DNA of 64,000 nt from an uncultured Pseudomonadota bacterium. Lineage in GTDB: Bacteria; UBA10199; JADFYH01. Location of the stretch: contig CAZQOW010000001.1 of NCBI GenBank assembly GCA_964595045.1, positions 9,183-73,182 on the forward strand, in the 5' to 3' direction. The translations under genes were made by a program, and so were the position numbers. How positions within the stretch are numbered: the stretch's first letter is position 1; each line of letters begins with the position of its first letter. The notes below the pieces were generated by a model that was given only the letters and a program-made list of their open reading frames with translations, was not told where the DNA came from and did not search any database. Below, one piece after another: positions 25,891-47,890 of the stretch.

Positions 25891-25892
25891 TC

Positions 25893-30524: not shown

Positions 30525-31624
30525 ACATTACTATCCGTGTTGATGCATCTTCTCTCATGGGCTCAGGACACGTGATGCGTTGTATTGCACTGGGGGATAC
30601 TTTCGCCGAGAACGGATCAGAAGTATCTTTTATCTGCCGCGAGCTTGAAGGGCATCTTTGCGACTTCATGGAAAACCGAGGATTAAAGGTCTATCGTCTA
30701 CCCCCTCCAAAAAAAACATTATCGAAAGAGATCGGTTCTATACGTCATAAAGACTGGTTAGGAGTCCCTTTGGAAGAAGACTGCATGCAAACCGAGGAGA
30801 TTTTAAGAACGATTCCAACACCCGATTGGTTAATTCTCGATCATTATGCGCTCGATGTTAAATGGGAAAACTTTGTACGGCGGTATGTTAGAAAAATTCT
30901 GGTGATCGATGATCTCGCTGATAGAGCACATGACTGCGACATCCTTCTCGACCAAAACGTCTCTGAGTCACATGCGAATATCTACCAACAGCTCACTCCA
31001 AAGAATTGCGAAATCATACTCGGTCCTCGCTACTCTCTTCTACGTTCAGAATTTCGTAAAAAGCGTTCAACGATGCGCCAACGAGATGGAAAAATAAAAA
31101 GAATTCTTATCTCATTCGGAATGATTGATCAAACGAATGAAACTTTTAAAACGCTCAAAGTAATCGAATCTCTTCAAGAAAAAAACTTCAGTTGTGACGT
31201 TGTTGTCGGTCAACAAAATTGGCACAAAAACGAGATCGAGAATTTTTGCAAACAGTTGCCACACACCCGTTTTCACTTTCAAGTTGACTATCTCTCTGAA
31301 TTAATTGCTGCTGCGGATCTAGCGATTGGAGCATCCGGATCTACCCATTGGGAACGTTGTTGTCTCGGCTTACCTTCTCTTCTTATTTCCGTCGCTTTCA
31401 ATCAGGAATCAATTGGTAAAACATCTCAAGAAAATGGGACTGGTATTTATCTCGGCACTTCCGAAGAAGTAACCTCTGAAAGAATCGCAAATGAGATAAA
31501 AAACCTTTTTACTGATTCAAAGCGAATGCTTGACTTATCTCGTAATGCCAAAGCGATCGTAGACGGTGAAGGAGCTTTACGTGTTTATGATAGAATGTTA
31601 AAAAAAATAACTACAAAATTATAA
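30521..31624 (+). CDS. pseG: PseG-like UDP-sugar hydrolase (GT-B, UDP-2,4-diacetamido-2,4,6-trideoxy-L-altropyranose hydrolase family)
   Basis: N-terminal ITIRVDASSLMGSGHVMRCIALGDTF, the PseG S..GxGH.mR motif, 367 aa. Confidence 0.7.
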   Translation: MNITIRVDASSLMGSGHVMRCIALGDTFAENGSEVSFICRELEGHLCDFMENRGLKVYRLPPPKKTLSKEIGSIRHKDWLGVPLEEDCMQTEEILRTIPTPDWLILDHYALDVKWENFVRRYVRKILVIDDLADRAHDCDILLDQNVSESHANIYQQLTPKNCEIILGPRYSLLRSEFRKKRSTMRQRDGKIKRILISFGMIDQTNETFKTLKVIESLQEKNFSCDVVVGQQNWHKNEIENFCKQLPHTRFHFQVDYLSELIAAADLAIGASGSTHWERCCLGLPSLLISVAFNQESIGKTSQENGTGIYLGTSEEVTSERIANEIKNLFTDSKRMLDLSRNAKAIVDGEGALRVYDRMLKKITTKL

Positions 31625-31635
31625 CGTATAAAAAA

Positions 31636-32193
31636 ATGATAACAAATGATCACTTAATATTCAGAGGCGGCCATCTTCGTGTTTTAAGAGAAGAAGATGT
31701 TCATCAAAGATACGTAGATGGGCTCAATAACTCCCTCGTTAATCGCTATCTTGGTAACGTAAAAAAAACGACGCAAACTCTAGAAACTGTCTCTCAATTT
31801 GTTAAACAAAACCTACAAGATCCACATGGTATCTTGTTTGGAGTTTGGCCAGACAACTCAAAGAACCACTGTGGCACCGTTCGATTACATAGTATTGATG
31901 ATTATCATTTAACAGCGAATATTGGGATTTGTATTTTCGAAACTGACTTTTGGGGACAGGGCATCGGAACCAAATCTATTCAGATCATTACGCAATGGGG
32001 AATAGACACTTTAAAACTTCGCTGGATTGAATCAGGAATTTATATCGACAATAAAGCATCGCAAAAAGCATTCTTAGCTGCCAACTACAAATGGATATGT
32101 GATTTAGAAGGGAAGCATCTCTTCGATGGCTTACCAACTATTACTCGTATTTATGCAGCCCGCAATAATTATTGTGAAAAAAAAACATCCTAA
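31636..32193 (+). CDS. GNAT-family N-acetyltransferase (RimL/PseH-like), second copy
   Basis: 185 aa. LRVLREEDVHQRYVDGLNN then GQGIGTKSIQIITQWGID, an acetyl-CoA binding pattern. Confidence 0.55.
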   Translation: MITNDHLIFRGGHLRVLREEDVHQRYVDGLNNSLVNRYLGNVKKTTQTLETVSQFVKQNLQDPHGILFGVWPDNSKNHCGTVRLHSIDDYHLTANIGICIFETDFWGQGIGTKSIQIITQWGIDTLKLRWIESGIYIDNKASQKAFLAANYKWICDLEGKHLFDGLPTITRIYAARNNYCEKKTS

Positions 32194-34069
32194 AGCTCTT
32201 ATCGTATTACGACTACATCCTTTAAATTTCCCTTTGATTTTAATTGGAAGTTTTTTTTTCAATATTGTCTATTGGAAATCAGAAAAAATTCCAGAATCGT
32301 GGCTTAAGAGATTCGAAGTCATAGATCCTGAAGATTACTTTACATACGAAGAATGGATAGAGGTCACTGCTCAAGCCCAGAAGAGTTGGAAAATAAAGAT
32401 TGAACCATGGAACGACAAAACCTCTTTTTTATGGAAACAAATTAATATTACGGTTGATTTCAGTAATACATGGCTACAATGGCTTGGAATATACTTTGAA
32501 GAGTACTTTTTTTTTCTCCATTTATCTAAACGTTGGATCGAGAAAGCTATTAGCATTAAAGCAGTCAAATTCGCTGATTTGATGATATTTGACTTAGCCT
32601 CCGACTTAAAATACATAGTTTCAGCTTCTTCCCTCAGCATCATAAAAATTTTCTACTATCTCGATTTGGCATGGCAATGGTCTCTTGCTTTAATATTTTG
32701 CTTTCGCCAACTTGGAAGGCTTATTCAAAGGAGAGACAAATCTGTAAATACTAGAGAAACATACCGTTACCTATGGACTGGAATCAGCCCACAAGAAGCA
32801 GCTAGCGAACCGAACCAACTCGATTTTGCATTTCTTGTTGAAAGAGGAATAATAAACTCTAAAGATTGTCTTTTCATCCTAGCCAAACAACCATCAAATA
32901 CGACTATCAGTTATCTTAGTAAAAGAAATATCCATTGGACCACCACTCAAGACATTGGGAAATGGCTTAACATTCGAGAACGAGTTCTAGCACTTCTTGG
33001 ACTTTTCAAAACTCTATTGCATGGATGTTTTTTGAGAAAGAAACAGATTCATACCCCCCTTATCTTGCAGTTTTGCTTTAATACCCAATCATGGATTTTT
33101 TTCATAAAAAAAATCAAACCGGAAATCTATTTTTCTACTGTGAGTGAATCCTGGCCTGAACGTCCTGAGGTGTCTGTTATAAACGCTTTAGGTGTCAATA
33201 CAGTGAACTGGTTTTATTCGGCAAATATATTTTCGTATTCTCAGACAAATCCTGCCTTTGAAGATCTCGGTATCTTGAGAAGTATTTCTGTCGCACGAGA
33301 AATATGGGTTTGGAACGAAACAGTCGCTCAGTGGTTTAATTTAAGAAATATTCAACCAAAACCTGATCAACCAAAAATCAAAGTCACAGGACCCATAATG
33401 TGCGGAAATTCCCAATGGCTAAAAAAAACCCCAGCTGATGTTCGAAGCTCTTATGGAATTAAATCAGAAAAAACGACAAAATTTATTGCCGTATTTGATG
33501 TGCCTACCATTACTAGAGCATACCGGATTAAAATAGGTCATGGCCCATCTCTTTACCCCTTAAAGATGCTCGAACAATTTTTTGATGATCTCTGTAACCT
33601 CTTAGATGCTTTCGAAAATGTAAACTTGATTATAAAACCTAAAAGATCATTAGAAGATCCCCAAAGAGACTATTCAAAAGGAATGTGGCGCCTCATAAAT
33701 CCGACGGGACATTATCAAGAAAGAAAAAAAATCACTCTTCTCCCACATAATATTGATCCGTATTTACCGATCGCCATGTCAGACTTCTGTGTAGGTCTCC
33801 CCTTTACCTCTCCAGTTCTTGTCGGTCTAAGCAGTGGCAGAGATGGTCTTTTTCATGACCCACTTTCTTGTGTAAATTATTTTTATCCTAAGGAAATAAC
33901 CCCCTTGATTACTCATGGAAAAAAAGAGTTTTTAGAACGAATCGATCAATGGATGAAGGGGAACAAAATCAAAATACGCAACCAATCAGTTGCAGAAGCT
34001 TACTGTGGCTCTTCGGTTGATCCTGCAATACAATTTGCAACTCTTGCCTTATCAAACCCCAGTAATTAA
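32126..34069 (+). CDS. Uncharacterized large protein with GT-B-like C-terminal half. Candidate CMP-NulO/Kdo-type transferase. Start uncertain.
   Basis: C-terminal NLIIKPKRS...KITLLPHNIDPYLPIAMSDFCVGLPFTSPVLVGLSSGRDGLF looks like a GT-B nucleotide-sugar-binding domain. The 5' end overlaps the GNAT gene by 68 nt in another frame, so the true start is likely downstream. Confidence 0.4.
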   Translation: MAYQLLLVFMQPAIIIVKKKHPKALIVLRLHPLNFPLILIGSFFFNIVYWKSEKIPESWLKRFEVIDPEDYFTYEEWIEVTAQAQKSWKIKIEPWNDKTSFLWKQINITVDFSNTWLQWLGIYFEEYFFFLHLSKRWIEKAISIKAVKFADLMIFDLASDLKYIVSASSLSIIKIFYYLDLAWQWSLALIFCFRQLGRLIQRRDKSVNTRETYRYLWTGISPQEAASEPNQLDFAFLVERGIINSKDCLFILAKQPSNTTISYLSKRNIHWTTTQDIGKWLNIRERVLALLGLFKTLLHGCFLRKKQIHTPLILQFCFNTQSWIFFIKKIKPEIYFSTVSESWPERPEVSVINALGVNTVNWFYSANIFSYSQTNPAFEDLGILRSISVAREIWVWNETVAQWFNLRNIQPKPDQPKIKVTGPIMCGNSQWLKKTPADVRSSYGIKSEKTTKFIAVFDVPTITRAYRIKIGHGPSLYPLKMLEQFFDDLCNLLDAFENVNLIIKPKRSLEDPQRDYSKGMWRLINPTGHYQERKKITLLPHNIDPYLPIAMSDFCVGLPFTSPVLVGLSSGRDGLFHDPLSCVNYFYPKEITPLITHGKKEFLERIDQWMKGNKIKIRNQSVAEAYCGSSVDPAIQFATLALSNPSN

Positions 34070-34074
34070 ATTGA

Positions 34075-35829
34075 TTGGAAAAAAATGTGTCTACCTTTAA
34101 AATTAAATCCTCTCTAGCTAAATTTAAAAAATGGCTGTCCATCAAACATCTTAAAAAAACTTATCTCTTTTTAGGGTCTCGTGTCATTTACTATCTGAGT
34201 GGAAGCGGAATTGCTGGACTACTCCTTTTTTTAACTGAAGCAGCATTTGCACTCGGGTTACAACTTTTTCTTCTAGCTCTCGGAATTGCATCTCCTCAAA
34301 CTGTCAAGCTTCCAAACTGGCTAACTGGATTGGGATTTTATCAGGTGATTGGACTTGTCTTTTCGATCGGTGTATTTCGAGCGTTACTACTCTGGTTTCA
34401 AACTTATCTGCAAATGGCCTCTATGGAGGAGCTTAAATATCTTATTCGAACTCGAATATTATCTTGGGCTTTTCATGCTAAGTCAGTAAGTGCTACCCAG
34501 GTAACCTCGATCTTTAATGAGAGATGTAATATAGCAGCAGGTGCTATAGGAAATTTTCAAGGTTTAATTGTAAAAGTAATCGCCGGGATCTGCATCCTCA
34601 TCAATCTGTTCATTCTTTCCCCTTTCACAACCATAGTCACTAGTATCGCTTTTCTCTGTTTAGGACTAATTGCCACTCAGATGAGCCGTAAAATTACGAA
34701 TGCTGGCTCTAATCTTAAAAAGGAATGGGATAGAACAAATCGAGGACTTCTTAATAGTATTAAAAATTTACTGCTCATGCAAATCTATGGAACACAATCC
34801 ATGGAAGAAGCGAAAGCGCAGAAAAGTCTAAGAACCTATCGTGATCATATTATGAATCATTTTTATAAAGCTGGTTTCAATTCTGCTATTCCACAGATTG
34901 GAGGAATTGCAATGATCTGCGCCATTGCCCTTACTTACAGATCCCACTACGGAATTGCCCCGGCTGCTTTGGTTTCTTATCTTTATCTTTTTTTGCGACT
35001 AGCTCAAAATTTTTCAGAAAGTGTTCACAATGGCTCAAACCTACTGTTTTATTGGCCTCAATTTATTGAGATTGGACAATGGTGGAATCAAACTCTTTCA
35101 TCGGATGAGCATGACCCATTACCAGTCGTACAAAAATATGATTTTCAAATTAAAAATATTTCTCAACCTTTAGGTTGGATGATCAAAAATGTTCAATATA
35201 GCTACCCCGCTACAAACCACTCTGCTATTAAGCAATTTAATCTACATTTAGCCCCAGGTAAAACTCTTGTGATTACTGGTCCTTCTGGCTCAGGGAAAAG
35301 CACTATTTTGGGATTAATGCTCGGAATTCTTTCTCCTCAAATAGGAGAAGTAAATATTTTATTTGGAGAAACTTCGTATCCCATAGAGAGTGTAAAACCA
35401 ATCCTTCTAAAAAATATTGGCTATGTAGGAGCTGAAAGCTTTCTTTTGGAAGGAACAATTTATGATAATATTATTTATGGATTGAGTACTATCCCTACCG
35501 AAGCTGAAATTCATGAGGCACTCAAACTATCTGAATGTGATTTTATTTACAACTTTCCCAAACAGCTCAATCATAAAATCACAGAACAAGGTCATGGGTT
35601 ATCTGCGGGGCAAAAGCAACGACTTTCTCTAGCAAGAGCATTTCTTAGAAAACCAAAAATTCTATTTCTAGATGAAGCGACTGCAAATCTAGATTCAAAA
35701 ACTGAAATGAAGTTGGTGACCACTCTAGGTCTTTCAAAAGGTAAAATGACAATTATTGCTGCTACGCATCGAAGTGCAATGCTTACCATCGCTGATGTTC
35801 AATTAAAGTTAGATAAGAGTGATGAATAG
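34075..35829 (+). CDS. ABC exporter, fused permease + ATPase (MsbA/PglK-type half-transporter). Candidate lipid-linked oligosaccharide flippase.
   Basis: Six predicted TM helices. Walker A GPSGSGKST, ABC signature LSAGQKQRLSLARAF, Walker B ILFLDEATANLD, 584 aa. Confidence 0.85.
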   Translation: MEKNVSTFKIKSSLAKFKKWLSIKHLKKTYLFLGSRVIYYLSGSGIAGLLLFLTEAAFALGLQLFLLALGIASPQTVKLPNWLTGLGFYQVIGLVFSIGVFRALLLWFQTYLQMASMEELKYLIRTRILSWAFHAKSVSATQVTSIFNERCNIAAGAIGNFQGLIVKVIAGICILINLFILSPFTTIVTSIAFLCLGLIATQMSRKITNAGSNLKKEWDRTNRGLLNSIKNLLLMQIYGTQSMEEAKAQKSLRTYRDHIMNHFYKAGFNSAIPQIGGIAMICAIALTYRSHYGIAPAALVSYLYLFLRLAQNFSESVHNGSNLLFYWPQFIEIGQWWNQTLSSDEHDPLPVVQKYDFQIKNISQPLGWMIKNVQYSYPATNHSAIKQFNLHLAPGKTLVITGPSGSGKSTILGLMLGILSPQIGEVNILFGETSYPIESVKPILLKNIGYVGAESFLLEGTIYDNIIYGLSTIPTEAEIHEALKLSECDFIYNFPKQLNHKITEQGHGLSAGQKQRLSLARAFLRKPKILFLDEATANLDSKTEMKLVTTLGLSKGKMTIIAATHRSAMLTIADVQLKLDKSDE

Positions 35830-35993
35830 AAAAATAGTAGCCAATCATTAACCGAAGTTTTAAGTTAACTTTGTATCTGGAACGTCTTGAGACTATCCTA
35901 TGATATTTCCGAAATCAGCTTAAGGCTATTGAGAAAAAAACGATGTTCAATTCAACTTTCCGCTATTACAGAAAACACATATTTGGATAAACA

Positions 35994-36818
35994 ATGCCCA
36001 ACAAAATAAAAAAAACCTATATTATCGCCGACATTTCTTCTAATCACATGGGTAATATGGCAATAGCCCAAGCAATGATTGATGTAGCTGCCAATATTGG
36101 TATTGACTGCGTCAAGTTTCAATCTTGGAAGGCAGGCTCACTCCGTAAAGATTTTCCAGATTACAATGCCACCTACAACCGCCACAAAAAAACCGAGCTT
36201 TCCGAAGATGACCATTTACTGTTGATAGAACATTGTAAAAAAAATAGCATCGACTTCCTCACTACCTGCTTTGATCTAAATCGTATTGATTTTTTAGCTT
36301 CTCTTGGAATCGACACAATCAAAGTTGCCAGTCCTGATTGTGGAAGTATTCGGCTTCTTGAATCTTTAATGAAACATTTTAAAAAACTGATTATTTCTAC
36401 GGGCATGACGCAGGATACAGATGTTCAAAAAGCAATTGAAGTGACACGAGGTCATGATGTTGTTTTTCTTCATTGTGTATCGCTCTATCCTACCCCCCCT
36501 GAAAAAGTAAATATGAAGCGATTAGACTGGCTTAAATCAATGGGGGTTCGTGTCGGTTACAGTGATCACACCATGGGAGTGGATGCTGGGAAGCTTGCCA
36601 TATCTCGCGGAGCAGAGATTTTGGAAAAACATTATACTCTCTCCCGTGACTTGCCTGGTAAAGATCAAGCAATGTCTATGATGCCAGAAGAGTTGGCAGA
36701 GCTCTGCCGTTTTGCGAAAGTGGTTGAGCGGATGGATGGGGTATCGCAACCAGAACTCTCTGAAGATGAAAAAAAACTTCGGGCAATTTATGTTGGAAAA
36801 TGGGGAAATAACCGATGA
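35994..36818 (+). CDS. Short NeuB-family nonulosonic-acid synthase (TIM-barrel only, no SAF domain)
   Basis: YIIADISSNHMGNMAIAQAMIDVAANIGIDCVKFQ and GYSDHTMG, 274 aa. Ends before where a SAF domain would begin. Overlaps neuC. Confidence 0.7.
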   Translation: MPNKIKKTYIIADISSNHMGNMAIAQAMIDVAANIGIDCVKFQSWKAGSLRKDFPDYNATYNRHKKTELSEDDHLLLIEHCKKNSIDFLTTCFDLNRIDFLASLGIDTIKVASPDCGSIRLLESLMKHFKKLIISTGMTQDTDVQKAIEVTRGHDVVFLHCVSLYPTPPEKVNMKRLDWLKSMGVRVGYSDHTMGVDAGKLAISRGAEILEKHYTLSRDLPGKDQAMSMMPEELAELCRFAKVVERMDGVSQPELSEDEKKLRAIYVGKWGNNR

Positions 36819-37975
36819 GTGATAAAAAAAGAAAAATTTGCATTGTGGTTGCCAGTCGTGCCAACTATGGAAGAATTAAATCTGTCTTAAAGGCTATTCA
36901 AAAACACCCCTCTCTTGAACTTCAGTTGATCGTCGGCGCCTCTGCCCTTTTACATCGATTTGGAAGTGTTATTGATATTATTCGAAAAGACGGCTTCGAA
37001 CCTAATGCAACTCTCTATTCTATTGTCGAAGGAGAAAATCCAACAACGATGGCTAAATCAACTGGGATGGGCATTATAGATCTAGCAACACAATTCGAAA
37101 ATTTAAAACCTGACGTTGTGCTAACAGTGGCTGATCGATTTGAAACCATGTCGACCGCCATTGCCGCTTCCTATATGAATATTGCTCTCGCGCACACACA
37201 AGGTGGAGAAGTCACAGGCTCACTCGATGAAAGTGTAAGACATGCAATCACTAAACTTGCCCATATTCACTTTCCTGCAACTCCTATCGCTGAGCAAAGA
37301 CTTTTAAAAATGGGAGAGGAACCTGAAAGAATTCGAATGACAGGTTGCCCCTCTTTAGATCCTATTTGTGATATCGATCTTAAACTTCCCGAAGATATTT
37401 TTCGTCGATATGGAGGGGTCGGGGCCGACATCAAAACCAACTCAGAGTACATCGTGGTTCTTCAACATCCAGTGACAACTGAATATGGATCCGGATTAGC
37501 ACAAATTAACGAAACACTGAAGGCTGTCTCTCAACTCAAAAAACCAACGATATGGCTCTGGCCAAATGTTGACGCAGGATCTGACGATATCTCCAAGGGG
37601 CTTCGAACTTTTCGTGAACGGGAAAAACCAGACTATATCCATTTTTTCCGTAACTTCTCAGTTGAGGATTATGCTCGTTTAATCTCTAACTGCATCTGTC
37701 TCATCGGAAACTCTTCCAGTGGGATACGAGAAGGAGCATTACTCGGTACGCCCGTAGTAAATATAGGATCACGCCAGCAAGGTCGAGAACGTGCCCAAAA
37801 TGTATTGGACGCCGATTATAAAGCCGAAGAGATTCTCAACAAGACAAAAATTCAAATTGATCATGGAAAGTATAAATCTAATCCGCTTTATGGAGATGGT
37901 CATGCAGGTATAAGAATTGCGGATAATTTGGCAACAATGTCACTTCACAATCTCCAGAAACGTCTAACCTATTAA
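36815..37975 (+). CDS. neuC: UDP-N-acetylglucosamine 2-epimerase (hydrolysing), NeuC/LegG type
   Basis: ICIVVASRANYGRIKSVLKAI, DRFETMSTAIAASYMNIALAHTQGGEVTGSLDESVRHAITKLAHIHF, 386 aa. Confidence 0.8.
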   Translation: MSDKKRKICIVVASRANYGRIKSVLKAIQKHPSLELQLIVGASALLHRFGSVIDIIRKDGFEPNATLYSIVEGENPTTMAKSTGMGIIDLATQFENLKPDVVLTVADRFETMSTAIAASYMNIALAHTQGGEVTGSLDESVRHAITKLAHIHFPATPIAEQRLLKMGEEPERIRMTGCPSLDPICDIDLKLPEDIFRRYGGVGADIKTNSEYIVVLQHPVTTEYGSGLAQINETLKAVSQLKKPTIWLWPNVDAGSDDISKGLRTFREREKPDYIHFFRNFSVEDYARLISNCICLIGNSSSGIREGALLGTPVVNIGSRQQGRERAQNVLDADYKAEEILNKTKIQIDHGKYKSNPLYGDGHAGIRIADNLATMSLHNLQKRLTY

Positions 37976-38009
37976 TACATCCCAAATCTTGTAAGTAAAA
38001 CGATTCAAT

Positions 38010-39407
38010 ATGAAACCACTCCTGTTCATGATTCTTCATAATGATTATATGGCACGTGACTTTGTGGAGAGTGGCGTTTTAGTTCAGTTAAAACAAGAGT
38101 TCGAATTATATTTTGCCATTACTGATAAAAATTTTACCTTGGATCTCTCTCCGTATGGGAAAGTTATTGGAAAATATACAAATCCATCCTGGAGAGAAAG
38201 AATTTGGGAAATTGCCTTTGGCTTAAAACATCTCGCCGACCTCGATCCGATTATTCATACACAAAAAAATCGATTAGACGTGTTTCAAAGAGGTCGCGGA
38301 CCTCGACTAAAAAAACTAGTATTTCTAATTCATCGGATGGGACTTTCGAATTTTTTCAGTAAGATCTTTCAAAAAATTTTTCTTTGGAGTTCCAATAATT
38401 TTATCAACTTTCCTCGACTCCCCTCTGTGGCACTTTTACCTACAGGAATCAATGATCCTTTTTGGTCAGATGCTTTAACTATATGTAAACGAAATAAAAT
38501 CCCTTCACTTACCTTAACTGTCAATTGGGATAATATTGCACATAAAATCTTTCTAGTTCAACCAGATCTTCTAGGGGTCTGGGGGGAACAAGGCTATCTT
38601 TTTGCACGGCTTCTTCAAAAAATTCCTGTCGACAAAATTGTCAATGTCGGGACACCCCGTTTCGAAGCTTATCGAACCGTAAAAGCTTCGCGGATAGAAG
38701 CCCGAAAACAGGTAGACTTTCCGGAAGAAAAACGGATCCTACTTTTCGCCGGGGCTGGGGTGGCATTTGACGAAGTTTCACTGATTGAAGAGTTTGAAAA
38801 GGGATGCAGAGATGGAACACTCCCATCCGATCTCTATTTAGTTTACAAACCACATCCAAAAAGACACAAAAGAGTCGCTGAACCTCCTTTGAAACCTGAG
38901 ACATACAAATATGTTCAAGTATTGCAAAACTCCGGTTATACACCACTTCAACAATACCCAATTTTGCTCTCAGCGGTAGATGGATTGATCACCCCCTTTT
39001 CCACTATGCTATTGGAAGGGGCATTAATGGGTTTACCCGCTATTGGACTTGCTTATGACGATCCTAATCATGGGGATTTCTCTTGGTCAAACGCAAGAAT
39101 GAATAATCACCTTCATCCAATGCTTGATGAAAGATGGATGATTCAATGCTTCGAGCGTAAAGAATTTATCCCCAGCATACTCAAACTTTTACCGATGATT
39201 CGTAATCCCAAAGTAACAACCTCTGCTTATCAGACATCTCAGTTTATTCTGTTCAACGATCATCAAACATATGCGGACCGAATTACTCAAATTTTGAAAC
39301 AAGTCTCATCTCAACCTTATTCAAAAAAAATCTCGGATGAATTAGAAAAACAGATGGTGGAAAAAGGACAGAGCTATGTTAGCGAGCCGAATGTGCCAAC
39401 TTTGTAA
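38010..39407 (+). CDS. Uncharacterized GT-B-like protein. Candidate NulO/capsule transferase.
   Basis: YLVYKPHPKRH...LITPFSTMLLEGALMGLPAIGLAY is a GT-B C-terminal-domain pattern. No classical GT motif. 465 aa. Confidence 0.4.
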   Translation: MKPLLFMILHNDYMARDFVESGVLVQLKQEFELYFAITDKNFTLDLSPYGKVIGKYTNPSWRERIWEIAFGLKHLADLDPIIHTQKNRLDVFQRGRGPRLKKLVFLIHRMGLSNFFSKIFQKIFLWSSNNFINFPRLPSVALLPTGINDPFWSDALTICKRNKIPSLTLTVNWDNIAHKIFLVQPDLLGVWGEQGYLFARLLQKIPVDKIVNVGTPRFEAYRTVKASRIEARKQVDFPEEKRILLFAGAGVAFDEVSLIEEFEKGCRDGTLPSDLYLVYKPHPKRHKRVAEPPLKPETYKYVQVLQNSGYTPLQQYPILLSAVDGLITPFSTMLLEGALMGLPAIGLAYDDPNHGDFSWSNARMNNHLHPMLDERWMIQCFERKEFIPSILKLLPMIRNPKVTTSAYQTSQFILFNDHQTYADRITQILKQVSSQPYSKKISDELEKQMVEKGQSYVSEPNVPTL

Positions 39408-40269
39408 TTTTGATCAATCTTATATTGTTTATGAAGGATCTATTCGTTCAGGACTTCCTGGAACCACAACAAACGGTTATAAAATTTTAGAATGTCATCA
39501 TTGTAAAATCCAATATTTAGATCCACAGCCTGAAAATCCACTTCAAAAATACGAAGATGGTTCTTATCGGAAAGATTATGATGGAGCAGAAAATTTATCT
39601 TCCTATCGACAAAAACATGACAAAGATCAGTCACTGAAAATCTCTCTCATTGGAACTGAAAAACTGCGTGACATTGCTATAGCTGACGTTGGGTGTGGTG
39701 CAGGGGCCTTTCTTGATTTAGTAAAGGGAATGGCTTTACGCACTATAGCAGTCGAGCCAATGCTTTCTTATCACGACTATTTATCAAAAAACTTTACTGC
39801 GTGCTATCGCAGCACCTCCGAATTTTCCAAAAATGAACTCAACACGGTGGATATCATCACGACTTTTGCGGTCATCGAACATGTTCAGAATCCGTTAGTT
39901 TTTTTGAAAGAGCTTCGAGTGGCATTAAAACCTGGAGGTTATCTTTGTTTAACTACGCCTAATCGTCGAGAGATTTTAATGACCACCAATGAAGTTTCTT
40001 TTAAGCCACATTTTTATCGTACCGCTCATCTCTGGTACTTTGACCGCGAATCATTAATTAATCTTGCTGAGCAAGCTGGATTTAAAGTAAAAAGTTTTCA
40101 TACATTTCACACTTATAATTTTTCCAATTATGTTGTTTGGCTGCGAGATAGAAAAGTATCAGGAAAAGACTCTATTTTTAAAGAATTCACTTCAGAAATT
40201 GATGACGCTTGGCGTTCTTTTCTTGAAAGAAATGAATTGGCAGATCAAATCTACATGGAGCTTATATGA
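39376..40269 (+). CDS. Class I SAM-dependent methyltransferase with N-terminal Cys-rich (zinc-ribbon-like) segment
   Basis: CQLCNFDQ...ECHHCKIQY then motif I ADVGCGAGAFLDL, 297 aa. The 5' end overlaps the preceding gene, so the start may be at internal Met. Confidence 0.6.
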   Translation: MLASRMCQLCNFDQSYIVYEGSIRSGLPGTTTNGYKILECHHCKIQYLDPQPENPLQKYEDGSYRKDYDGAENLSSYRQKHDKDQSLKISLIGTEKLRDIAIADVGCGAGAFLDLVKGMALRTIAVEPMLSYHDYLSKNFTACYRSTSEFSKNELNTVDIITTFAVIEHVQNPLVFLKELRVALKPGGYLCLTTPNRREILMTTNEVSFKPHFYRTAHLWYFDRESLINLAEQAGFKVKSFHTFHTYNFSNYVVWLRDRKVSGKDSIFKEFTSEIDDAWRSFLERNELADQIYMELI

Positions 40270-41039
40270 AAGAAATTGAATCTCACTATGAATTTCTTCA
40301 TGAAAAAATTTTCCAAACAAAAACAAAATGGCCACAATTTAAGCGAATGCTCGAGGACGTTCGTGACTTGTCGATTCAACTTCCTCAAAGTTCGAATGTC
40401 ATAATTCTAGAGAGAGCTTATGTCTACGGCGGAAACAGTCTTTTTGCTCCATTATTTCATCAGCATCAAGTGACATCGGTCGATTGTGAAATACCAACAA
40501 CTACGGAACGTAGAGGATATCAAAAATCATGGACTGAAGATCCGCGATGTATTCAAATACCTGCTCAAACAAAAGCTTCAATCACAAAAACTGGACTACC
40601 CCATGCCAGTGCTGACTTGTTGCTTGTCCCTAATGTAGTTCATCACGAACCGGATCAAGAGGGAATGTTCGAAGAAATCGCCCGTCTTCTTCGGCCAGGA
40701 GGAACAGGATATATTTTCGAAGCACTTATAAGAGAATTGCATCAGATTCCTGATGACTACATAAGATATACTCCTTGGGGATTTCAAAAGATACTAGCTC
40801 GTCATGGTCTTGAAATGACTGAATGGAAACCAACAGGTGGTCCCTTTGAGGCAATTTCTTATTGCTGGATACAGGCATTGCAGTTCATTCCTGAAAGTGA
40901 GCGTGGTGAAAAAGAAAAGTGGTTTTTTACTGAGCATCTTCCAGAACTTTTAGAAATGGATAAACGATATACAACAAATATCTCCCGACCACACACTACA
41001 TTTCCAGTTGCCTACTCTATTTATTTTAGAAAGTCTTAA
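40266..41039 (+). CDS. SAM-dependent methyltransferase-like protein
   Basis: LLVPNVVHHEPDQEGMFEEIARLLRPGGTGYIFE resembles the post-motif-I/II region of Methyltransf_11/23 enzymes. 257 aa. Confidence 0.5.
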   Translation: MKEIESHYEFLHEKIFQTKTKWPQFKRMLEDVRDLSIQLPQSSNVIILERAYVYGGNSLFAPLFHQHQVTSVDCEIPTTTERRGYQKSWTEDPRCIQIPAQTKASITKTGLPHASADLLLVPNVVHHEPDQEGMFEEIARLLRPGGTGYIFEALIRELHQIPDDYIRYTPWGFQKILARHGLEMTEWKPTGGPFEAISYCWIQALQFIPESERGEKEKWFFTEHLPELLEMDKRYTTNISRPHTTFPVAYSIYFRKS

Positions 41040-41042
41040 CAA

Positions 41043-41756
41043 ATGTTTTCTCACCTCCCTCCAGCTCTCAAACCGGTATTGGCGTTCATTCCTGCAAGAG
41101 CTGGTAGCAAAGGAGTTCCTAATAAAAATCTTAGAACACTCGATGGAAAAAGCTTAATGCAACTCGCCATAGAATGTGCAAAATCATCCTCTATTTTTGA
41201 CCGTATTGTCGTTTCATCCGATGGAGAAGAAATTCTAAAAGAAGCCACCCGATATGGTGCCGAAACGATTCAACGTCCCCCAGAACTTGCAATTGATAGT
41301 GCCAATATTCTGGATTCAATCACTCATACTCTTCAGTTTTTATTTTCTCAAGGATATCAACCAGCTTCTATTGCACTTTTAGAACCCAGCTCTCCATTTC
41401 GTACACCGGCACTTGTTCAACAGGTAGTTTCCTTATTAAGTGAGCATGAAGCTGCTTTTACAGTAACTGAAGTAGATTTAAAATTTCACCCTGCAAAACA
41501 ATTTATTCTAAATGATCAAAGAATAGCCCTTCCCTCCTGTTCAAATCTGGCTTCTCCAGTGAATCGTCAAGAATTAGACCCAACGTTCATTAGAAATGGT
41601 GGAGTATATGCTTTTCGAACAGAAATGTTTCTTCGAGAAAAATCAGTCTTAGGAAAAAGGCCCCGGGCTTTTATAACAAAGGAAGTTTTGATAAATATCG
41701 ATACGATGGCAGATTATAAACTTGCTCAAAAGCTGATACAAAAAATAAATAAATAA
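41043..41756 (+). CDS. neuA: Acylneuraminate cytidylyltransferase (CMP-NulO synthetase, NeuA/LegF-like)
   Basis: LAFIPARAGSKGVPNKNLRTLDGKSLMQLAIECAKSS...RIVVSSDGEEI aligns with the NeuA N-terminus. 237 aa. Confidence 0.8.
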   Translation: MFSHLPPALKPVLAFIPARAGSKGVPNKNLRTLDGKSLMQLAIECAKSSSIFDRIVVSSDGEEILKEATRYGAETIQRPPELAIDSANILDSITHTLQFLFSQGYQPASIALLEPSSPFRTPALVQQVVSLLSEHEAAFTVTEVDLKFHPAKQFILNDQRIALPSCSNLASPVNRQELDPTFIRNGGVYAFRTEMFLREKSVLGKRPRAFITKEVLINIDTMADYKLAQKLIQKINK

Positions 41757-41760
41757 AACT

Positions 41761-42678
41761 ATGCACAAATTAGCCTTTGTAATTCCAACCAAAGACCGCC
41801 CAAACGACATGCGAGTGATGCTTACAAGTCTTTCTCGTCAGACACTTCTCCCTAATCAGATTATTGTCGTCGATGGAAGTAATCCAGACATTCAATCTGT
41901 CATTAATGAGTTTCCACAATTACATATCGATTATGTCCGTGTTTATCCCCCTTCTCTTGCAAAACAACGCAATGAAGGAATGAAAAAAATAAAGCCTGAA
42001 ATTACGCTTGCTGGATATTTAGATGACGACGTAGAACTTCAACCAAACGCCGTTGCATCGATGATGAACTATTGGGAAAAAAGTGCTCCTGATCTAGGTG
42101 GGACCTGTTTCAATATCGTCAACACCGATCCTGCTCGATGGACAAAAGTTAAGAGTGTTTTTGGCATTGATGGTTCAATTCCAGGAAAAGTTTTTCCCTC
42201 AGGATGCGTCTCTATTCTTGGATATCAATCCGAGGATATAGAAACAGACTGGCTTTGCGGAGGTGCAACCATATGGCGACGAGAAATTATAGAAAATTAT
42301 CCCTATGACGAATGGTTTAAAGGAACCGGGTTCCTTGAAGATGTCGACTATAGCTTTAATGTACGTGAGAAGTATCGCTTGGCTTTGGTAGCTTCAGCGA
42401 AGCTGAGTCACTATAGCCCGCCGATCCGATCCGATCGACATTTTTTGCTTGGGAAGTGGCAAATTGTCAACCGTATGTATTTTGTTAGAAAGTATCGAAT
42501 GAGAGGCCTATCCATTTCCAAAGCGTGGATTGCAAATTTTGGAATGTTGTATTTGAGACTTATTCAGGCTCTTCTTAAGAGGGATCGAAACAGCTGGAAT
42601 CAATTTAGAGGTCATGCAGCTGGTATATGGTCTGAGATTCGCGGTAAAAACGAGCAAATCGGCGGATTCTTGAAATAA
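41761..42678 (+). CDS. Family 2 glycosyltransferase
   Basis: FVIPTKDRPNDMRVMLTSLSRQT...IIVVDGSNPD, DDD motif (YLDDDVEL), 305 aa. Confidence 0.75.
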   Translation: MHKLAFVIPTKDRPNDMRVMLTSLSRQTLLPNQIIVVDGSNPDIQSVINEFPQLHIDYVRVYPPSLAKQRNEGMKKIKPEITLAGYLDDDVELQPNAVASMMNYWEKSAPDLGGTCFNIVNTDPARWTKVKSVFGIDGSIPGKVFPSGCVSILGYQSEDIETDWLCGGATIWRREIIENYPYDEWFKGTGFLEDVDYSFNVREKYRLALVASAKLSHYSPPIRSDRHFLLGKWQIVNRMYFVRKYRMRGLSISKAWIANFGMLYLRLIQALLKRDRNSWNQFRGHAAGIWSEIRGKNEQIGGFLK

Positions 42679-42775
42679 ACATTGATAGAGTTGATAAATT
42701 TTTATTCGCCTATTGGAAAATTTAAATAGCAATGGGAGCAAAACAAATAAAAACAGAGATCGGAGTTTGTAATAA

Positions 42776-43621
42776 ATGAGTATCGTATCCATTTTGAAAT
42801 CAACTCTTAAACCAATAATCCCATCCTTCATATTTCAAAGAACTCATATCATACGTAAAAAAATCCAGAAACTTCGTTTCTCTTTTTTTGAAAAAACTGT
42901 AGACTGTGATGTTTTAGGAAATACAATTAAAATAGGGGTTTCCTCGGATATCGAAAAATACCGCACTGAAACTTATTCCACCAAAGAGCCTGAAACACTG
43001 AACTGGTTAAAAAAGAATCTTCAGGAGGGGGATGTTTTTTACGATATCGGAGCAAATATTGGGCTTTATTCATTATATGCAGCGAAACTTCATCCGCATA
43101 TTAAAATATTCGCTTTCGAACCAGAATCCCAAAACTTTGCAAGACTCTGCAAAAATTTGATTCTCAATCATGCAACTCAAGTAATTCCTTGTAGTTTTCC
43201 TTTAACTGATAGAGAAATATTCGATTACTTTTTTATCAGTGAATTGAAGGCAGGATGTGCCTTTCATGAGTTCGGATCGCCTAATCAATACCGTTGGTCT
43301 AAAGAAACAGAACCGTTCAAACAGGGAGCTTTAGGAGTTTCTTTAGATTGGCTGGTCAACGTTCTTAAAGTTCCGGCCCCCACATTGTTAAAGATTGATG
43401 TGGATGGAATTGAAGAAAAAATATTGGCGGGAGGATCTTCACTAATCACACAAAGGAGCATTCGCTCCATTCTTATAGAAGTGACAGATAACAACGGGGA
43501 AAAAGATCGGGTAATCAACTTATTTAAAAAGGCACAATATCAACTTACAGAAGAAGGCGAAGAGCTGACCACTTCCAATGGATCCAGAAGCCGCAATCTC
43601 ATATTTGATCGAATCTCTTAA
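42776..43621 (+). CDS. FkbM-family methyltransferase
   Basis: FYDIGANIGLYSLYAA motif, FAFEP, IDVDGIEEKIL. 281 aa. Confidence 0.7.
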   Translation: MSIVSILKSTLKPIIPSFIFQRTHIIRKKIQKLRFSFFEKTVDCDVLGNTIKIGVSSDIEKYRTETYSTKEPETLNWLKKNLQEGDVFYDIGANIGLYSLYAAKLHPHIKIFAFEPESQNFARLCKNLILNHATQVIPCSFPLTDREIFDYFFISELKAGCAFHEFGSPNQYRWSKETEPFKQGALGVSLDWLVNVLKVPAPTLLKIDVDGIEEKILAGGSSLITQRSIRSILIEVTDNNGEKDRVINLFKKAQYQLTEEGEELTTSNGSRSRNLIFDRIS

Positions 43622-43637
43622 ATGATTTTAAGATTAA

Positions 43638-45197
43638 ATGAATCTCAGGAAAAACTCAAAAAAAGATTTCATATTTTCATATGCCAAGACCATTGCTTCT
43701 GCCGGCTCCCAGAACCTTTCACTGAACTGGTGGCCAACTTGGCTTTCTTCAAAAAACAGGTACCTCTCTTCAGCTACACGCTATTTTGAAGAAATTTTTC
43801 TTAATGAAAAAACTTTTCATGAACCTCCCAAGAAATTTCGTTACGGACTTGCCCTTATTTCTGCAATTGCTCGCTCGATCAAATGTAGTATAAAACTACT
43901 TTTTCAAATAGGCTTAATGCGTATTAAATATGCATCTCTTACCAAGAGAATAAAAAAAGAATTCAAGGGTAAAGAAGTTTATCTCATCAAGACGTTTGCT
44001 TATAAACATAGTTTTAAGGATAAGTCATTTAGAGATGTTTACTTTGAAACTTTACCACAGCATTTAAAAAAAAGAGGGATTGCGACTCTCACTATTTTTG
44101 ATCCTATTGATTGTTTTAAAGAGACATTCCGTTATGGCTTCGCAAATCTACTAAAAGAAAAAGCCTTACCTTTCTATCTCTTCTGTAACTTCTTTGACCT
44201 TTTAAAGGCTTGGAAATACTTGATTAGAGGTGCTCTTTGCGCCCAATTTCAAAATGTTCTTTTTGGTTCCCAGGATGTATCTTGTGAAATTAAACGCTTC
44301 CATCAAATCGATATGTTGGGAGCAAACTCTCTTTACAGCTTCGTGATTTATTTGGCCTTCTGTAGAATTTCAAAAACTTTCAATTTGAGTCACTTTCTCT
44401 TTACTTTTGAAAATAACCCTTGGGAGCGTTTATGCCAAATCGCCGTAAAAAAGCAAAACCCAAAAACCAAAACTATAGGATATCAACACTCAGTATTAGC
44501 CGAGTCTTCAATGAATATGTTTGCAGGAGAAGGTGAGCTTTCTTACGCTCCTTATCCGGATCGTGTACTGACAGTCGGTTGGGAGACAGCACAAATTATC
44601 AAACAATATAGTGCTGCGCCGCCCCCTTCTCCAGAGCCTGCATGCGCTCTAAGATTTCAATATCTCGAAAAAATGCAGACTCGTTCTGGGCCTGTAACAA
44701 AAACTCTACTCGTCGCTCTAGATGGTGCTCGCGAAGCCTCTCAGGTAATTCATTACATTTTTCAAAACTTATCGGCTTTAAAAGATTGGGAAATAATTAT
44801 TAGAATGCATCCATCTTTATCGATAAGTAAATTAAAAGGGATAAATCTTGATTTTTCTTATTCTAATATTGAACTTTCTAAAAATAGAAAGCTTTACGAA
44901 GATCTAAGTAGAAGTGGAGTTGTTTTCTATCAAGGCAGCTCTGTTGCTCTCGAGGCATTAATGCTTGGTCTTCCGATCATTCATTTTGATACTAATAGAA
45001 TTCTATCCGATGATCCCCTTTTTGCTTGTCCTCACTTAAAATGGATAACCCAACATTCTTCGGCACTTAATAATGTTTTAGAGAATATATTGACTATCCC
45101 CCTTATTTCTCTTAATGAGTCACGTCTGAGAGCTCAAGAATATTTACGTAAATATTTTTATCCGGTCACTATTCAATCAATGAATCTCTTTATTTGA
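43638..45197 (+). CDS. Uncharacterized GT-B-like protein. Candidate NulO/capsule transferase or polymerase.
   Basis: EIIIRMHPS...VVFYQGSSVALEALMLGLPIIHFD is a GT-B C-terminal pattern. 519 aa, no classical motif recognised. Confidence 0.4.
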   Translation: MNLRKNSKKDFIFSYAKTIASAGSQNLSLNWWPTWLSSKNRYLSSATRYFEEIFLNEKTFHEPPKKFRYGLALISAIARSIKCSIKLLFQIGLMRIKYASLTKRIKKEFKGKEVYLIKTFAYKHSFKDKSFRDVYFETLPQHLKKRGIATLTIFDPIDCFKETFRYGFANLLKEKALPFYLFCNFFDLLKAWKYLIRGALCAQFQNVLFGSQDVSCEIKRFHQIDMLGANSLYSFVIYLAFCRISKTFNLSHFLFTFENNPWERLCQIAVKKQNPKTKTIGYQHSVLAESSMNMFAGEGELSYAPYPDRVLTVGWETAQIIKQYSAAPPPSPEPACALRFQYLEKMQTRSGPVTKTLLVALDGAREASQVIHYIFQNLSALKDWEIIIRMHPSLSISKLKGINLDFSYSNIELSKNRKLYEDLSRSGVVFYQGSSVALEALMLGLPIIHFDTNRILSDDPLFACPHLKWITQHSSALNNVLENILTIPLISLNESRLRAQEYLRKYFYPVTIQSMNLFI

Positions 45198-45271: not shown

Positions 45272-45991
45272 ATGATAGCCGCTTTACTTATTGGTCGTAA
45301 AGGAAGTGTCGGATTTCCTGGAAAAAATAGTTATCCCATTAATGGAAAACCTCTGGCATCTTATCCCATGCATGCTGCCAAATCATCCTCTCTTGTAGAT
45401 CATATTTTCATCTCCACTGACTGCGAAAAGCTCATCGATTTGGCCAAGGAAAACGACCTTAAAATTATTAATCGCCCTGATTATCTCGCCACCAGACAGG
45501 CTCTGGGGGAAGATGTCTTTGTTCATGGTTATAAAGAAATCAAGCAACAAATGGGAAACTTAGAGTTTATGGTTCTCCTTCATTGTAACTCTGCAACTGT
45601 TACAGGAAAAATGATAGATGAAGGAATTCAAACGTTGCGCAAAAACCCTTCCTTCGATTCGGCTGTCTCTGTTTCACGTTATAATATGTGGAGCCCATTA
45701 CGTGCCCGAAAAATTGGATCTGATGGACTTTTACATCCCTTCATCCCACTTGAAACTTTTGGTGATCCAAAAACCCTTAATTGTGATCGGGACTCTCAAG
45801 GAGATGTCTATTTTGCTGATATGGGAGTTTCGATTGTACGCTCGTACTGTTTAGAGCATATTGAAGAGGGATTACTTCCTCAGAAATGGATGGGGCAAAA
45901 AATATATCCATTGATCCAAGAGGCAGGATGCGATGTAGATTATGAGTTTCAAATTCCTCAAACCGAATATTGGATTAAGAAAAACTTATAG
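45272..45991 (+). CDS. Acylneuraminate/CMP-Kdo-type cytidylyltransferase (third CMP-sugar synthetase in the locus)
   Basis: MIAALLIGRKGSVGFPGKNSYPINGKPLASYPMHAAKSS...HIFISTD. 239 aa. Confidence 0.75.
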   Translation: MIAALLIGRKGSVGFPGKNSYPINGKPLASYPMHAAKSSSLVDHIFISTDCEKLIDLAKENDLKIINRPDYLATRQALGEDVFVHGYKEIKQQMGNLEFMVLLHCNSATVTGKMIDEGIQTLRKNPSFDSAVSVSRYNMWSPLRARKIGSDGLLHPFIPLETFGDPKTLNCDRDSQGDVYFADMGVSIVRSYCLEHIEEGLLPQKWMGQKIYPLIQEAGCDVDYEFQIPQTEYWIKKNL

Positions 45992-46033
45992 TGAGTGATT
46001 CAACCGTAAGTTTTTTTAGAAATATATTTTCAT

Positions 46034-47176: not shown

Positions 47177-47887
47177 ATGAAAAAGAAAAAAATTCTTATC
47201 ACCGGAGCAGGAACCGGAATAGGCTTAGCCATCACCTGTAAATTCTTGGAACAAGGATGGGAAGTTGTTGCTCATTATAATCTTTCCGGAGATCAATTAA
47301 TAAAGCTTAAAAAACAAAATTTTCCTCTTAGACTTCTTAAAGCTAACTTTGCCAAAACCTCTGAAATCAAAAATTTTATTAAAGTTGTGTCAAAAGAATC
47401 GTTTAATATTCTCATCAATAATGCAGCCATATATGATCTTTCTTTGAGCGCTAAAAATCGGATTTCTTCGATTGAAGATGTTTTAAGAGTCAACATGATA
47501 GCCCCCGCATTAATTGCCGAGGCTCTTTTCCAAAAAATGAAACTTCAAAAACGAGGGCACATTATTAATATTAGTTCGATCGGTGCCAAATATGGTAGCG
47601 ACAGTGAAAACAAATTTTATAGCATGAGTAAACGCGGACTAGAGTCTTTAACCAATACGCTCGCTCGAGAAGGAGCGTCCTTTAATATAGCTGTTAATAC
47701 AATACGACCAGGAGTTATTCAAACGAATTTCCATATTAAAAATAAACGAGTTTCAAAACAGCGACTTCATAAAATTCCTATGAAGCGTCTTGGTAAGCCA
47801 GAAGAGATTGCGGATTTTATATTTTATTTGTGTGATCAACAAACTTTTCTAACTAATCAAACGATTGCGATCGCAGGAGGAGAATAA
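47177..47887 (+). CDS. Short-chain dehydrogenase/reductase (SDR)
   Basis: ILITGAGTGIGLAI (TGxxxGxG), NNAA, catalytic YSMSK. 236 aa. ATG overlaps the radical SAM stop. Confidence 0.75.
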   Translation: MKKKKILITGAGTGIGLAITCKFLEQGWEVVAHYNLSGDQLIKLKKQNFPLRLLKANFAKTSEIKNFIKVVSKESFNILINNAAIYDLSLSAKNRISSIEDVLRVNMIAPALIAEALFQKMKLQKRGHIINISSIGAKYGSDSENKFYSMSKRGLESLTNTLAREGASFNIAVNTIRPGVIQTNFHIKNKRVSKQRLHKIPMKRLGKPEEIADFIFYLCDQQTFLTNQTIAIAGGE

Positions 47888-47890
47888 ATC

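Follow-up and report, generated by a model that had tools for sequence, protein, structure and literature searches.

Which enzymes transfer the activated nonulosonic acids (NulOs) that a bacterial surface-sugar locus makes? NulO transfer is known for Maf and FlmG, which act on flagellins, for KpsS1 (GT118), for the classical families of sialyltransferases and, as implicated by genetics, for enzymes of Tannerella. Few enzymes, to our knowledge, are known to place pseudaminic acid (Pse), legionaminic acid (Leg) or a related acid on a capsule, an O-antigen or an S-layer glycan. The question is raised by a stretch of 64,000 nucleotides, hereafter the window, from an uncultured Pseudomonadota bacterium (contig CAZQOW010000001.1, positions 9,183 to 73,182). 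A run of genes on a single strand, from about 17118 to 59304 (about 42 kb), forms a surface-sugar cluster that holds the genes of three GT-B-like proteins, here named A, B and C. A previous reading of the letters alone (the sequence-only reading) had proposed these proteins as the transferases for NulOs activated with cytidine monophosphate (CMP), an interpretation that our analysis partly supports. A, B and C are best explained as three very distantly related GT-B members of the TagF/TagB-like branch. We put at about one in two the probability that they are cytoplasmic, membrane-peripheral transferases that move CMP-activated (non)ulosonic acids onto a lipid-linked repeat unit.

Family membership and fold of the three proteins

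All three open reading frames (ORFs) are present on the plus strand. Protein A (32126-34069, 647 amino acids) is a GT-B protein with a PFTS motif and a candidate CMP-Pse transferase. Protein B (38010-39407, 465 amino acids) is a TagF/TagB-like GT-B protein and a candidate transferase for the NulO derived from the synthase NeuB3 and the epimerase NeuC. Protein C (43638-45197, 519 amino acids) is a GT-B protein and a candidate CMP-ulosonic-acid transferase; its family is large, uncharacterised and akin to TIGR04326. The database copies of A and B begin 9 and 6 codons further in and have 638 and 459 amino acids, so that the probable starts are at 32153 and 38028. None of the three proteins has a convincing transmembrane helix. 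A Pfam scan gave no significant family for A, B or C; the sole match was that of B to Glyphos_transf (PF04464), with 13 bits against a gathering threshold of 22.1 (E 0.049), and several homologues of B carry weak precomputed matches to this family. Neither Glycos_transf_2 nor Glycos_transf_1 matched any of the three at E<=1. The absence of classical GT2/GT4 signatures, noted in the sequence-only reading, therefore holds.

Profile matches place A in PFTS_polysacc (TIGR04417/PF27878), an uncharacterised family of 'polysaccharide biosynthesis PFTS motif proteins'. Protein A has the invariant PFTS motif of this family. It scores 94.4 bits against TIGR04417 (E 7.7e-27), slightly short of the 100 bits set as cutoff by NCBIfam, and its N-terminal part exceeds the model of 522 positions by about 120 residues. 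PF27878 is annotated on the identical database protein and on all 27 homologues. Protein C and its relatives match TIGR04326 over the C-terminal half (E 1e-8 to 1e-19), with 43 bits for C and 34-67 bits for the relatives against a cutoff of 250, and C also matches TIGR04396, far under the cutoff. Judged by these scores, the family of C is a sister of TIGR04326 and not a member of it. In size and genomic setting, C resembles the 'surface carbohydrate biosynthesis proteins' of TIGR04326 (the LIC13510 family) and TIGR04396. In an exhaustive profile search, the family of C comprised 2,404 clusters of 50% identity at E<1e-30, a number that rose to 8,280 when the limit was E<1e-3. The suggestion that the three proteins form an undescribed family was thus not borne out, as A falls in PFTS_polysacc, and C is a sub-threshold relative of TIGR04326 and TIGR04396 with at least 2,400 such clusters. 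A literature search on TIGR04326, TIGR04417, TIGR04396, the PFTS motif, LIC13510, and nonulosonic together with TagF found no paper.

Pairwise comparison of the three proteins, which had been proposed as a check, gave a mixed result. BLASTP returned no match between any two of them. Comparison of family profiles aligned B with C (E 2e-5 to 3e-5, probability 73-78%) over the greater part of the GT-B core. It aligned A with B at a low probability of 4-9% (E 0.0035-0.0096), with colinear motifs (TVNW; VW[NG]E; G-x-P; KP[KH][RP]; PF[TS][ST]), and found nothing between A and C. Confident AlphaFold2 models were obtained for A, with a predicted local distance difference test (pLDDT) score of 87.5 and a predicted template modelling (pTM) score of 0.87, and for C (pLDDT 92.5, pTM 0.91). 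In both models the fold is GT-B, as in GT4.

Searches of the Protein Data Bank with phmmer found nothing for A, B or C, and the family profiles of A and C gave nothing useful there. The family profile of B matched TagF (3l7i, E 7e-4) and TarL (8va1, E 9e-3) over residues 206-354, which correspond to the nucleotide-binding domain. The G-x-P-R, KPHP and PFST motifs of B line up with GYPR, LRMH (the H584 region) and DYSS of TagF. The structural matches of C form a flat list of GT-B proteins, with scores of 15.3 for NeuC, 14.6 for PimA, 13.5 for TarL, 12.5 for TagF and 12.4 for the domain of WaaA that binds CMP-Kdo (Kdo, 3-deoxy-D-manno-octulosonate); Foldseek was concordant.

NeuC-like enzymes share the GT-B fold and rank high among these matches. 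A, B and C might accordingly be GT-B proteins that do not transfer sugars, either hydrolases or epimerases of the NeuC/PseG type within NulO pathways or non-catalytic scaffold subunits. We consider this very unlikely. Genuine PseG and NeuC are already encoded in the locus, both above their equivalog cutoffs, and the Pfam and NCBIfam scans of the three proteins showed no sequence signal for Epimerase_2 or the PseG family. Moreover, their sizes of 465-647 amino acids and their extra N-terminal helices or domain resemble those of membrane-associated TagF-like transferases.

The sequence-only reading had also seen a likeness to KpsC/KpsS. KpsS1 (GT118), KpsC/KpsS (GT107) and WbbB (GT99) are retaining Pse or Kdo transferases that use CMP-Pse or CMP-Kdo in capsule or O-antigen synthesis (PMC12887879). 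An identity of A, B or C with KpsC/KpsS (Capsule_synth, PF05159) was rejected, as there was neither a Pfam match nor a KpsC/WbbB-like structural match.

Conserved motifs of the two domains

Motif conservation was counted within family alignments of 25 (A), 20 (B) and 29 (C) sequences. The first motif described in the sequence-only reading, a basic or HP string in the C-terminal region, is present in all three proteins (I502-IKPKRS in A, Y279-KPHPKRH in B and I387-IRMHPS in C) and is conserved well beyond chance. In A, the basic loop K504-P-K506-R507-S508 (33635-33649, plus strand) follows a β-strand, residues 499-504 in the model, and stands at the place of the HP motif with no histidine. K504 and K506 are found in 25/25 sequences, R507 is nearly invariant, and the profile alignment sets KPKR of A opposite KPHPKR of B. 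The HP motif of B, Y279-K-P-H282-P-K-R285 (38844-38864, plus strand), is conserved as Y-K-P-H-P-[KR]-R in 20/20 homologues. That of C, R389-M-H391-P392 (44802-44813, plus strand), is conserved as R-x-H-P in 28 of the 29 sequences, and hhalign aligned RMHP with KPHP of B at E 2e-5 to 3e-5.

A second motif, G-L-P-[AI]-I, had been placed 60-90 residues after the first; the measured spacing is 52-60 residues. The motif itself is found in B (G341-LPAI, in MGLPAI) and in C (G444-LPII, in LGLPII), but A has V-G557-LPFTSP, that is, a PFTS motif instead. The family-defining P559-F-T-S562 of A (33800-33811, plus strand) lies at the N-terminus of a helix; P559, T561, S562 and P563 do not vary, and at least 90% of the sequences have F560. 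In the profile alignment, PFTS of A is opposite P329-FST of B, about 10 residues upstream of GLPAI of B. On this alignment, the 'GLP' of A opens the string GLPFTSP of the PFTS motif and has no homology with GLPAI of B. The idea of one family sharing a GLP motif is not supported.

The corresponding segment of B, P329-F-S-T332 (38994-39005, plus strand), is followed by E336 and forms a putative phosphate- and ribose-binding loop and helix, in which P329, S331, T332 and E336 are invariant. Its counterpart in C, by hhalign to PFST...E of B, is G433-S-S435 (44934-44942, plus strand), followed by the nearly invariant E439.

In the N-terminal domain, B has the segment N172-W-D174-N175 (38523-38534, plus strand), which is invariant in the 20 sequences. 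In C, the segment G281-Y-Q-H284 (44478-44489, plus strand) is located at the end of a strand of this domain, residues 278-283 in the model, and H284 is a candidate catalytic base; G281 and H284 are invariant and Q283 is nearly so. TagF and TarL have pairs of catalytic histidines, H444/H584 and H300/H433, respectively, of which the second is at the phosphate. Both enzymes have a W-H dyad as catalytic base, W299-H300 in TarL (PMC10901376). We propose from the motif order that NWDN of B is the counterpart of this W-H motif, with an aspartate replacing the histidine. By the same order, A would have W362-F/S-Y364 in place of the dyad, B would have N-W173-D174-N, and C would have Q283-H284. The second histidine of the TagF pair would correspond to H282 in B, while A has no conserved histidine at either place and C has two invariant ones, H284 and H391. 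No conserved DXD motif was found in the A, B and C families.

Gene neighbourhood in the window and in other loci

The synteny of the three genes with NulO and cytidylyltransferase genes is conserved in unrelated metagenomic loci, which agrees with the NulO association that had been proposed. In the window, A and B directly follow a NulO module, as the sequence-only reading had claimed for each of the three genes. Directly 5' of A are the genes of PseI, PseG and a GNAT acetyltransferase (29475-32193, plus strand; TIGR03586 491 bits and TIGR03590 306 bits, both above cutoff). Directly 3' of A is a fused exporter of the ATP-binding cassette (ABC) type, MsbA/PglK-like, with ABC_membrane and ABC_tran domains and a PglK-type match (34075-35829, plus strand). 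Directly 5' of B are NeuB3, a short NeuB-like synthase with no SAF domain (NeuB family E 9e-63), and the hydrolysing 2-epimerase NeuC (TIGR03568 396 bits, above cutoff), at 35994-37975 on the plus strand. The genes 3' of B (39376-41756, plus strand) encode two methyltransferases and the cytidylyltransferase CMP1, at 41043, which is PseF-like below threshold. For C the claim does not hold, as this gene comes after those of a GT2 protein and an FkbM methyltransferase and before a cytidylyltransferase module. This module (45272-51262, plus strand) encodes the cytidylyltransferase CMP2, a radical S-adenosylmethionine (SAM)/SPASM protein, a short-chain dehydrogenase/reductase (SDR), a 2-hydroxyacid dehydrogenase, a cyclase, an IMPase-like phosphatase and an epimerase.

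Further upstream in the cluster, PseB and PseC are encoded at 21714-23941 on the plus strand (TIGR03589 520 bits and TIGR03588 486 bits, both above cutoff), so that PseB, PseC, PseI, PseG and NeuC all score above their NCBIfam equivalog cutoffs. NeuB1, a divergent NeuB-like synthase (NeuB family E 5e-40), and a divergent cytidylyltransferase follow at 24883-26639 on the plus strand. The latter, ORF 25893-26639 (248 amino acids), is directly 3' of NeuB1 and had no Pfam match; its 39% identity to a PF02348 (CTP_transf_3) gene of the comparison locus L001 suggests that it is probably a third, divergent cytidylyltransferase. A weak NCBIfam match of this ORF to 'spiro-SPASM' probably reflects a shared cytidylyltransferase-like domain and was not taken as a taxonomic marker. 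The locus thus has three NeuB-type synthases (PseI and the NeuB-like proteins at 24883 and 35994) and three cytidylyltransferases, all of the CTP_transf_3 type (25893, 41043 and 45272), a family known for the synthesis of CMP-ulosonic acids. With three synthases, three cytidylyltransferases and three candidates, the count fits one transferase per CMP-sugar, as had been expected.

The cytidylyltransferases also bear on the possibility that one or more of the proteins, C first, are TagF-type phosphotransferases. Such enzymes would add an alcohol- or acid-phosphate from a donor activated with cytidine diphosphate (CDP), giving a phosphodiester like that of teichoic acids. TagF, TarL and Bcs3 come first or rank high in the structural and sequence comparisons, H284 and H391 of C have a spacing and order like those of the two essential histidines of TagF/TarL, and the set of cytidylyltransferase, 2-hydroxyacid dehydrogenase, IMPase-like phosphatase and SDR 3' of C is not a canonical NulO pathway. 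B shares with TagF/TarL/TagB (PF04464) the profile match over the nucleotide-binding domain and the G-x-P-R, His and Ser/Thr-loop motifs, and the leaving group would be CMP in both cases. However, among the ORFs from 19357 to 59304 there is no TagD (PF01467), IspD-type or polyol-phosphate dehydrogenase gene that would supply CDP-glycerol or CDP-ribitol, the W-H base is absent from A (W362-F) and B (W173-D), and the Glyphos_transf threshold was not reached. We therefore judge phosphoryl transfer to be quite unlikely and predict glycosyl transfer, with CMP-(non)ulosonic acids as donors.

The loci used for comparison (L001-L093) are unrelated metagenomic loci, the nearest of which come from metagenome-assembled genomes (MAGs) of Oligoflexia and Bacteriovoracaceae. 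A search of genome contigs with the profile of A found five loci. In L001, the genes of a GNAT protein, a PFTS protein and a flippase occur in this order, with two NeuB genes, one PseG-like gene and cytidylyltransferase genes upstream. The A-type gene directly follows PseG and PseI in L007 and, after PseB/C, also in L008, and it comes after a cytidylyltransferase gene in L009. For B, an Oligoflexia MAG (L002) has an identical block of short NeuB, NeuC and B, with 76% identity for NeuC and 70% for NeuB3. In L011, the neuB-neuC-B block is extended by the same two methyltransferase genes and the CTP_transf_3 gene as in the window, and in two more distant loci (L012 and L013) a CTP_transf_3 gene is directly 3' of the B-type gene. 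The A, B and C families occur together in L002, L011 and L013, and a fused ABC exporter of the kind found 3' of A is also encoded in L011, L012 and L013. The set of CMP2, 2-hydroxyacid dehydrogenase and epimerase is kept in L002 and L007, followed in L002 by a C-like protein of 617 amino acids.

CTP_transf_3 genes are near the C-type gene in L003, L004 and L005. The family of C was further counted in 38 of 80 metagenome loci, those with a flank of at least 8 kb. A CTP_transf_3-type gene is present in 27/38 (71%), a figure that has no base rate from random glycosyltransferase genes beside it, and a 2-hydroxyacid dehydrogenase gene in 13/38. A PFTS-type gene was found in 18/38, often immediately upstream of the C-type gene (e.g. 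L026 7778-9730, L028 7890-9833, L054 7849-9789 and L022 5882-7858), which suggests that PFTS-type and C-type genes are a recurrent functional pair. Among 134 immediate neighbours of C-type genes, within 3.5 kb in L014-L093, the Pfam tally is led by radical SAM/SPASM, methyltransferases, SIS, GFO oxidoreductases, GT2, SDR, HpcH aldolase, CTP_transf_3, transaldolase and DAHP_synth_1 (KdsA-like). The gene order 3' of C in the window agrees with this tally, from which C-type proteins would seem to accompany CMP-activated ulosonic acids in general, including the products of routes other than NeuB.

Large ORFs of 360-700 amino acids with no Pfam match adjoin C- or B-type genes in L004 (6294-8387), L005 (7924-9999 and 2601-4331), L011 (11986-13071) and L012 (5504-7129). 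They showed no similarity to A, B or C in BLASTP and may be further unrecognised enzymes of these loci.

The remainder of the cluster in the window is that of a surface glycan. The first genes of the run, from 17118, are NusG-like (UpxY/RfaH-type) and Wzi, and the last is that of a WecA-like priming transferase, at 57412, a protein of 630 amino acids with an extra C-terminal sugar-transferase-like region that closes the cluster at 59304. Upstream of the run are a Wza-like gene at 11105 and a Wzz-like gene at 9709, the latter on the minus strand. The recognisable glycosyltransferases of the cluster are two GT2 proteins, one GT4 protein and the WecA-like enzyme, and a LegB-like dehydratase and a sugar-1-phosphate nucleotidyltransferase are also encoded. 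A membrane protein of 398 amino acids at 51313-52509, with about 9-10 hydrophobic or transmembrane segments and no family match, is a candidate Wzy-type polymerase or ligase.

An Acyl_transf_3 O-acyltransferase gene (26657-27709) is broken into two ORFs of the same frame (139 and 203 amino acids) by an in-frame TAA at 27074-27076, which is either a nonsense mutation, making this a pseudogene, or a sequencing error. On the minus strand, a protein of 940 amino acids (59454-62276) has as its sole match a weak C-terminal one to the fimbrial TafC family, with 27.5 bits (E 1.6e-6) where the cutoff is 410. The first 2000 nucleotides of the window have a G+C content of 28%, markedly below that of the rest (33-43%).

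A proposed role in ulosonic acid transfer

The data above show the fold, the conservation of the motifs and the synteny; what follows on donor identity, on the pairing of donors with proteins, on residue roles and on the acceptor, we infer from them. As soluble or peripheral cytoplasmic enzymes, A, B and C would take CMP-activated (non)ulosonic acids from the neighbouring synthase and cytidylyltransferase genes. Protein A would be paired with CMP-Pse from the PseB/C/I/G module, and B with a NeuB3/NeuC-derived sugar of the Leg or neuraminic acid (Neu) type, probably methylated and activated by CMP1. The partner of C would be the product of CMP2 or of the 25893 enzyme, which may be an ulosonic acid not made by NeuB. 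The acceptor would be a lipid-linked oligosaccharide that the WecA-like enzyme (57412) starts and the GT2 and GT4 proteins lengthen. Once it carries the sugar, it would be flipped or polymerised by way of the ABC exporter (34075) or the Wzy-like protein (51313), and exported via the Wza-, Wzc- and Wzi-like genes.

Within the enzymes, CMP is expected to bind to the C-terminal Rossmann domain. The loop after its second strand, which has the HP motif in B and C but K-P-K-R in A, may contact or protonate the leaving phosphate, as H584 of TagF, H433 of TarL and the HP histidine of sialyltransferases do. The PFST/GSS/PFTS loop at the N-terminus of a helix, with the following Glu in B and C, would bind phosphate and ribose. 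The acceptor hydroxyl would be activated by a residue of the N-terminal domain at a strand end, for which D174 in B and H284 in C are the candidates. An aspartate base in B would parallel the inverting GT-B sialyltransferases. The sialyltransferases of GT38, GT52 and GT80, and WaaA (GT30), use CMP-ulosonic acids and have the GT-B fold in common with our proteins, as well as the HP motif in the case of B and C. However, A, B and C have no sequence match to GT38, GT52 or GT80, and these families are not among the top structural hits.

The closest functional precedent is found in Tannerella forsythia, where the O-glycan of the S-layer loses its terminal Pse or Leg derivative when BFO_1060/Tanf_01245 or TFUB4_00887 is deleted; these proteins were described as having a TagB/GT-B domain with HP and D/E-D/E-G motifs, and their genes are directly beside those for CMP-NulO synthesis (PMC5420450). 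The candidates resemble Tanf_01245 and TFUB4_00887, which have about 440 amino acids, in being GT-B/TagB-like proteins that adjoin CMP-NulO genes, with the HP motif in B and C. Compared through the profile NF046086 (BFO_1060_trans), B reaches 18.5 bits (E 9e-4), and repeated but weak matches of 17-31 bits (E 1e-7 to 3e-3) come from the B and C families. Against the cutoff of 200, they are not members.

Several observations weigh against a role of A, B and C in NulO transfer. Their closest solved relatives, TagF and TarL, are CDP-polyol phosphotransferases and not glycosyltransferases, and the structural matches of C are generic GT-B ones, the best being to the hydrolysing epimerase NeuC. Apart from the precomputed PF27878 annotation of A, all matches to named families are under the curated cutoffs. 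A, B and C thus stand outside every experimentally backed family, and the A and C families have no biochemically or genetically supported member. No [DE][DE]G string, as in the D/E-D/E-G motif of sialyltransferases, is present in A, B or C, and A does not have the histidine of the HP motif. Among the C-type loci, a NeuB homologue is found in just 12/38, and the nearest neighbours are SIS, HpcH aldolase, DAHP_synth_1 and radical SAM genes. Finally, SpsB of Bacillus subtilis has a TagB domain and HP and DEG motifs and is encoded beside the genes for CMP-Leg, but Leg transfer does not require it (PMC7439481). A transferase function has one positive precedent, that of Tannerella, and one negative, that of SpsB.

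The SpsB precedent is a warning against guilt by association, and A, B and C could be ordinary GT-B enzymes that use UDP-, GDP- or dTDP-sugars and are too divergent for the GT1/GT4 models, with the NulOs added by a GT2 protein or an unrecognised enzyme. The generic matches of C would fit this, and the locus also makes nucleotide sugars other than NulOs, as it encodes a UDP-glucose dehydrogenase, an RmlD-like protein and an NTP-transferase. We hold this to be unlikely in view of the tight adjacency to neuB/pseI and cytidylyltransferase genes, which recurs in distant taxa. Both the HP motif and the weak resemblance to BFO_1060 speak against it, and the locus offers no other candidate for three transfers of CMP-sugars.

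A role in the transfer of CMP-(non)ulosonic acids may extend beyond this locus. It is conceivable, if on balance doubtful, that the PFTS_polysacc family of A, the TIGR04326-related family of C and the family of B supply the transferases, long missing, that put nonulosonic and other ulosonic acids from CMP-activated donors on the non-flagellar glycans of many phyla. They would have arisen from a TagF-like scaffold by replacement of the W-H base and, in the PFTS family, also of the phosphate histidine by a Lys/Arg cluster. The frequent pairs of PFTS-type and C-type proteins would then build glycans with two different ulosonic acids, one of them made by a route that does not use NeuB (SIS/aldolase/radical SAM).

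That a TagB/TagF-like GT-B protein beside NulO genes may be a NulO transferase is an idea already in the literature, since the Tannerella enzymes have been described, and profile models of the A and C families are already catalogued with no assigned function. What is new is the occurrence of three such proteins in one locus with three synthases and three cytidylyltransferases, the recurrent partnership of PFTS-type and C-type genes, and the replacement of the His residues in A and B. The assignment of A, B and C as NulO transferases is a well-supported annotation hypothesis rather than a discovery, and a reasonable functional prediction rather than a new kind of system. If it is true, a function could be given to thousands of proteins now called 'hypothetical' or 'surface carbohydrate biosynthesis', CAZy could be extended by new families, and enzymes would become available for the chemo-enzymatic synthesis of NulO glycans.

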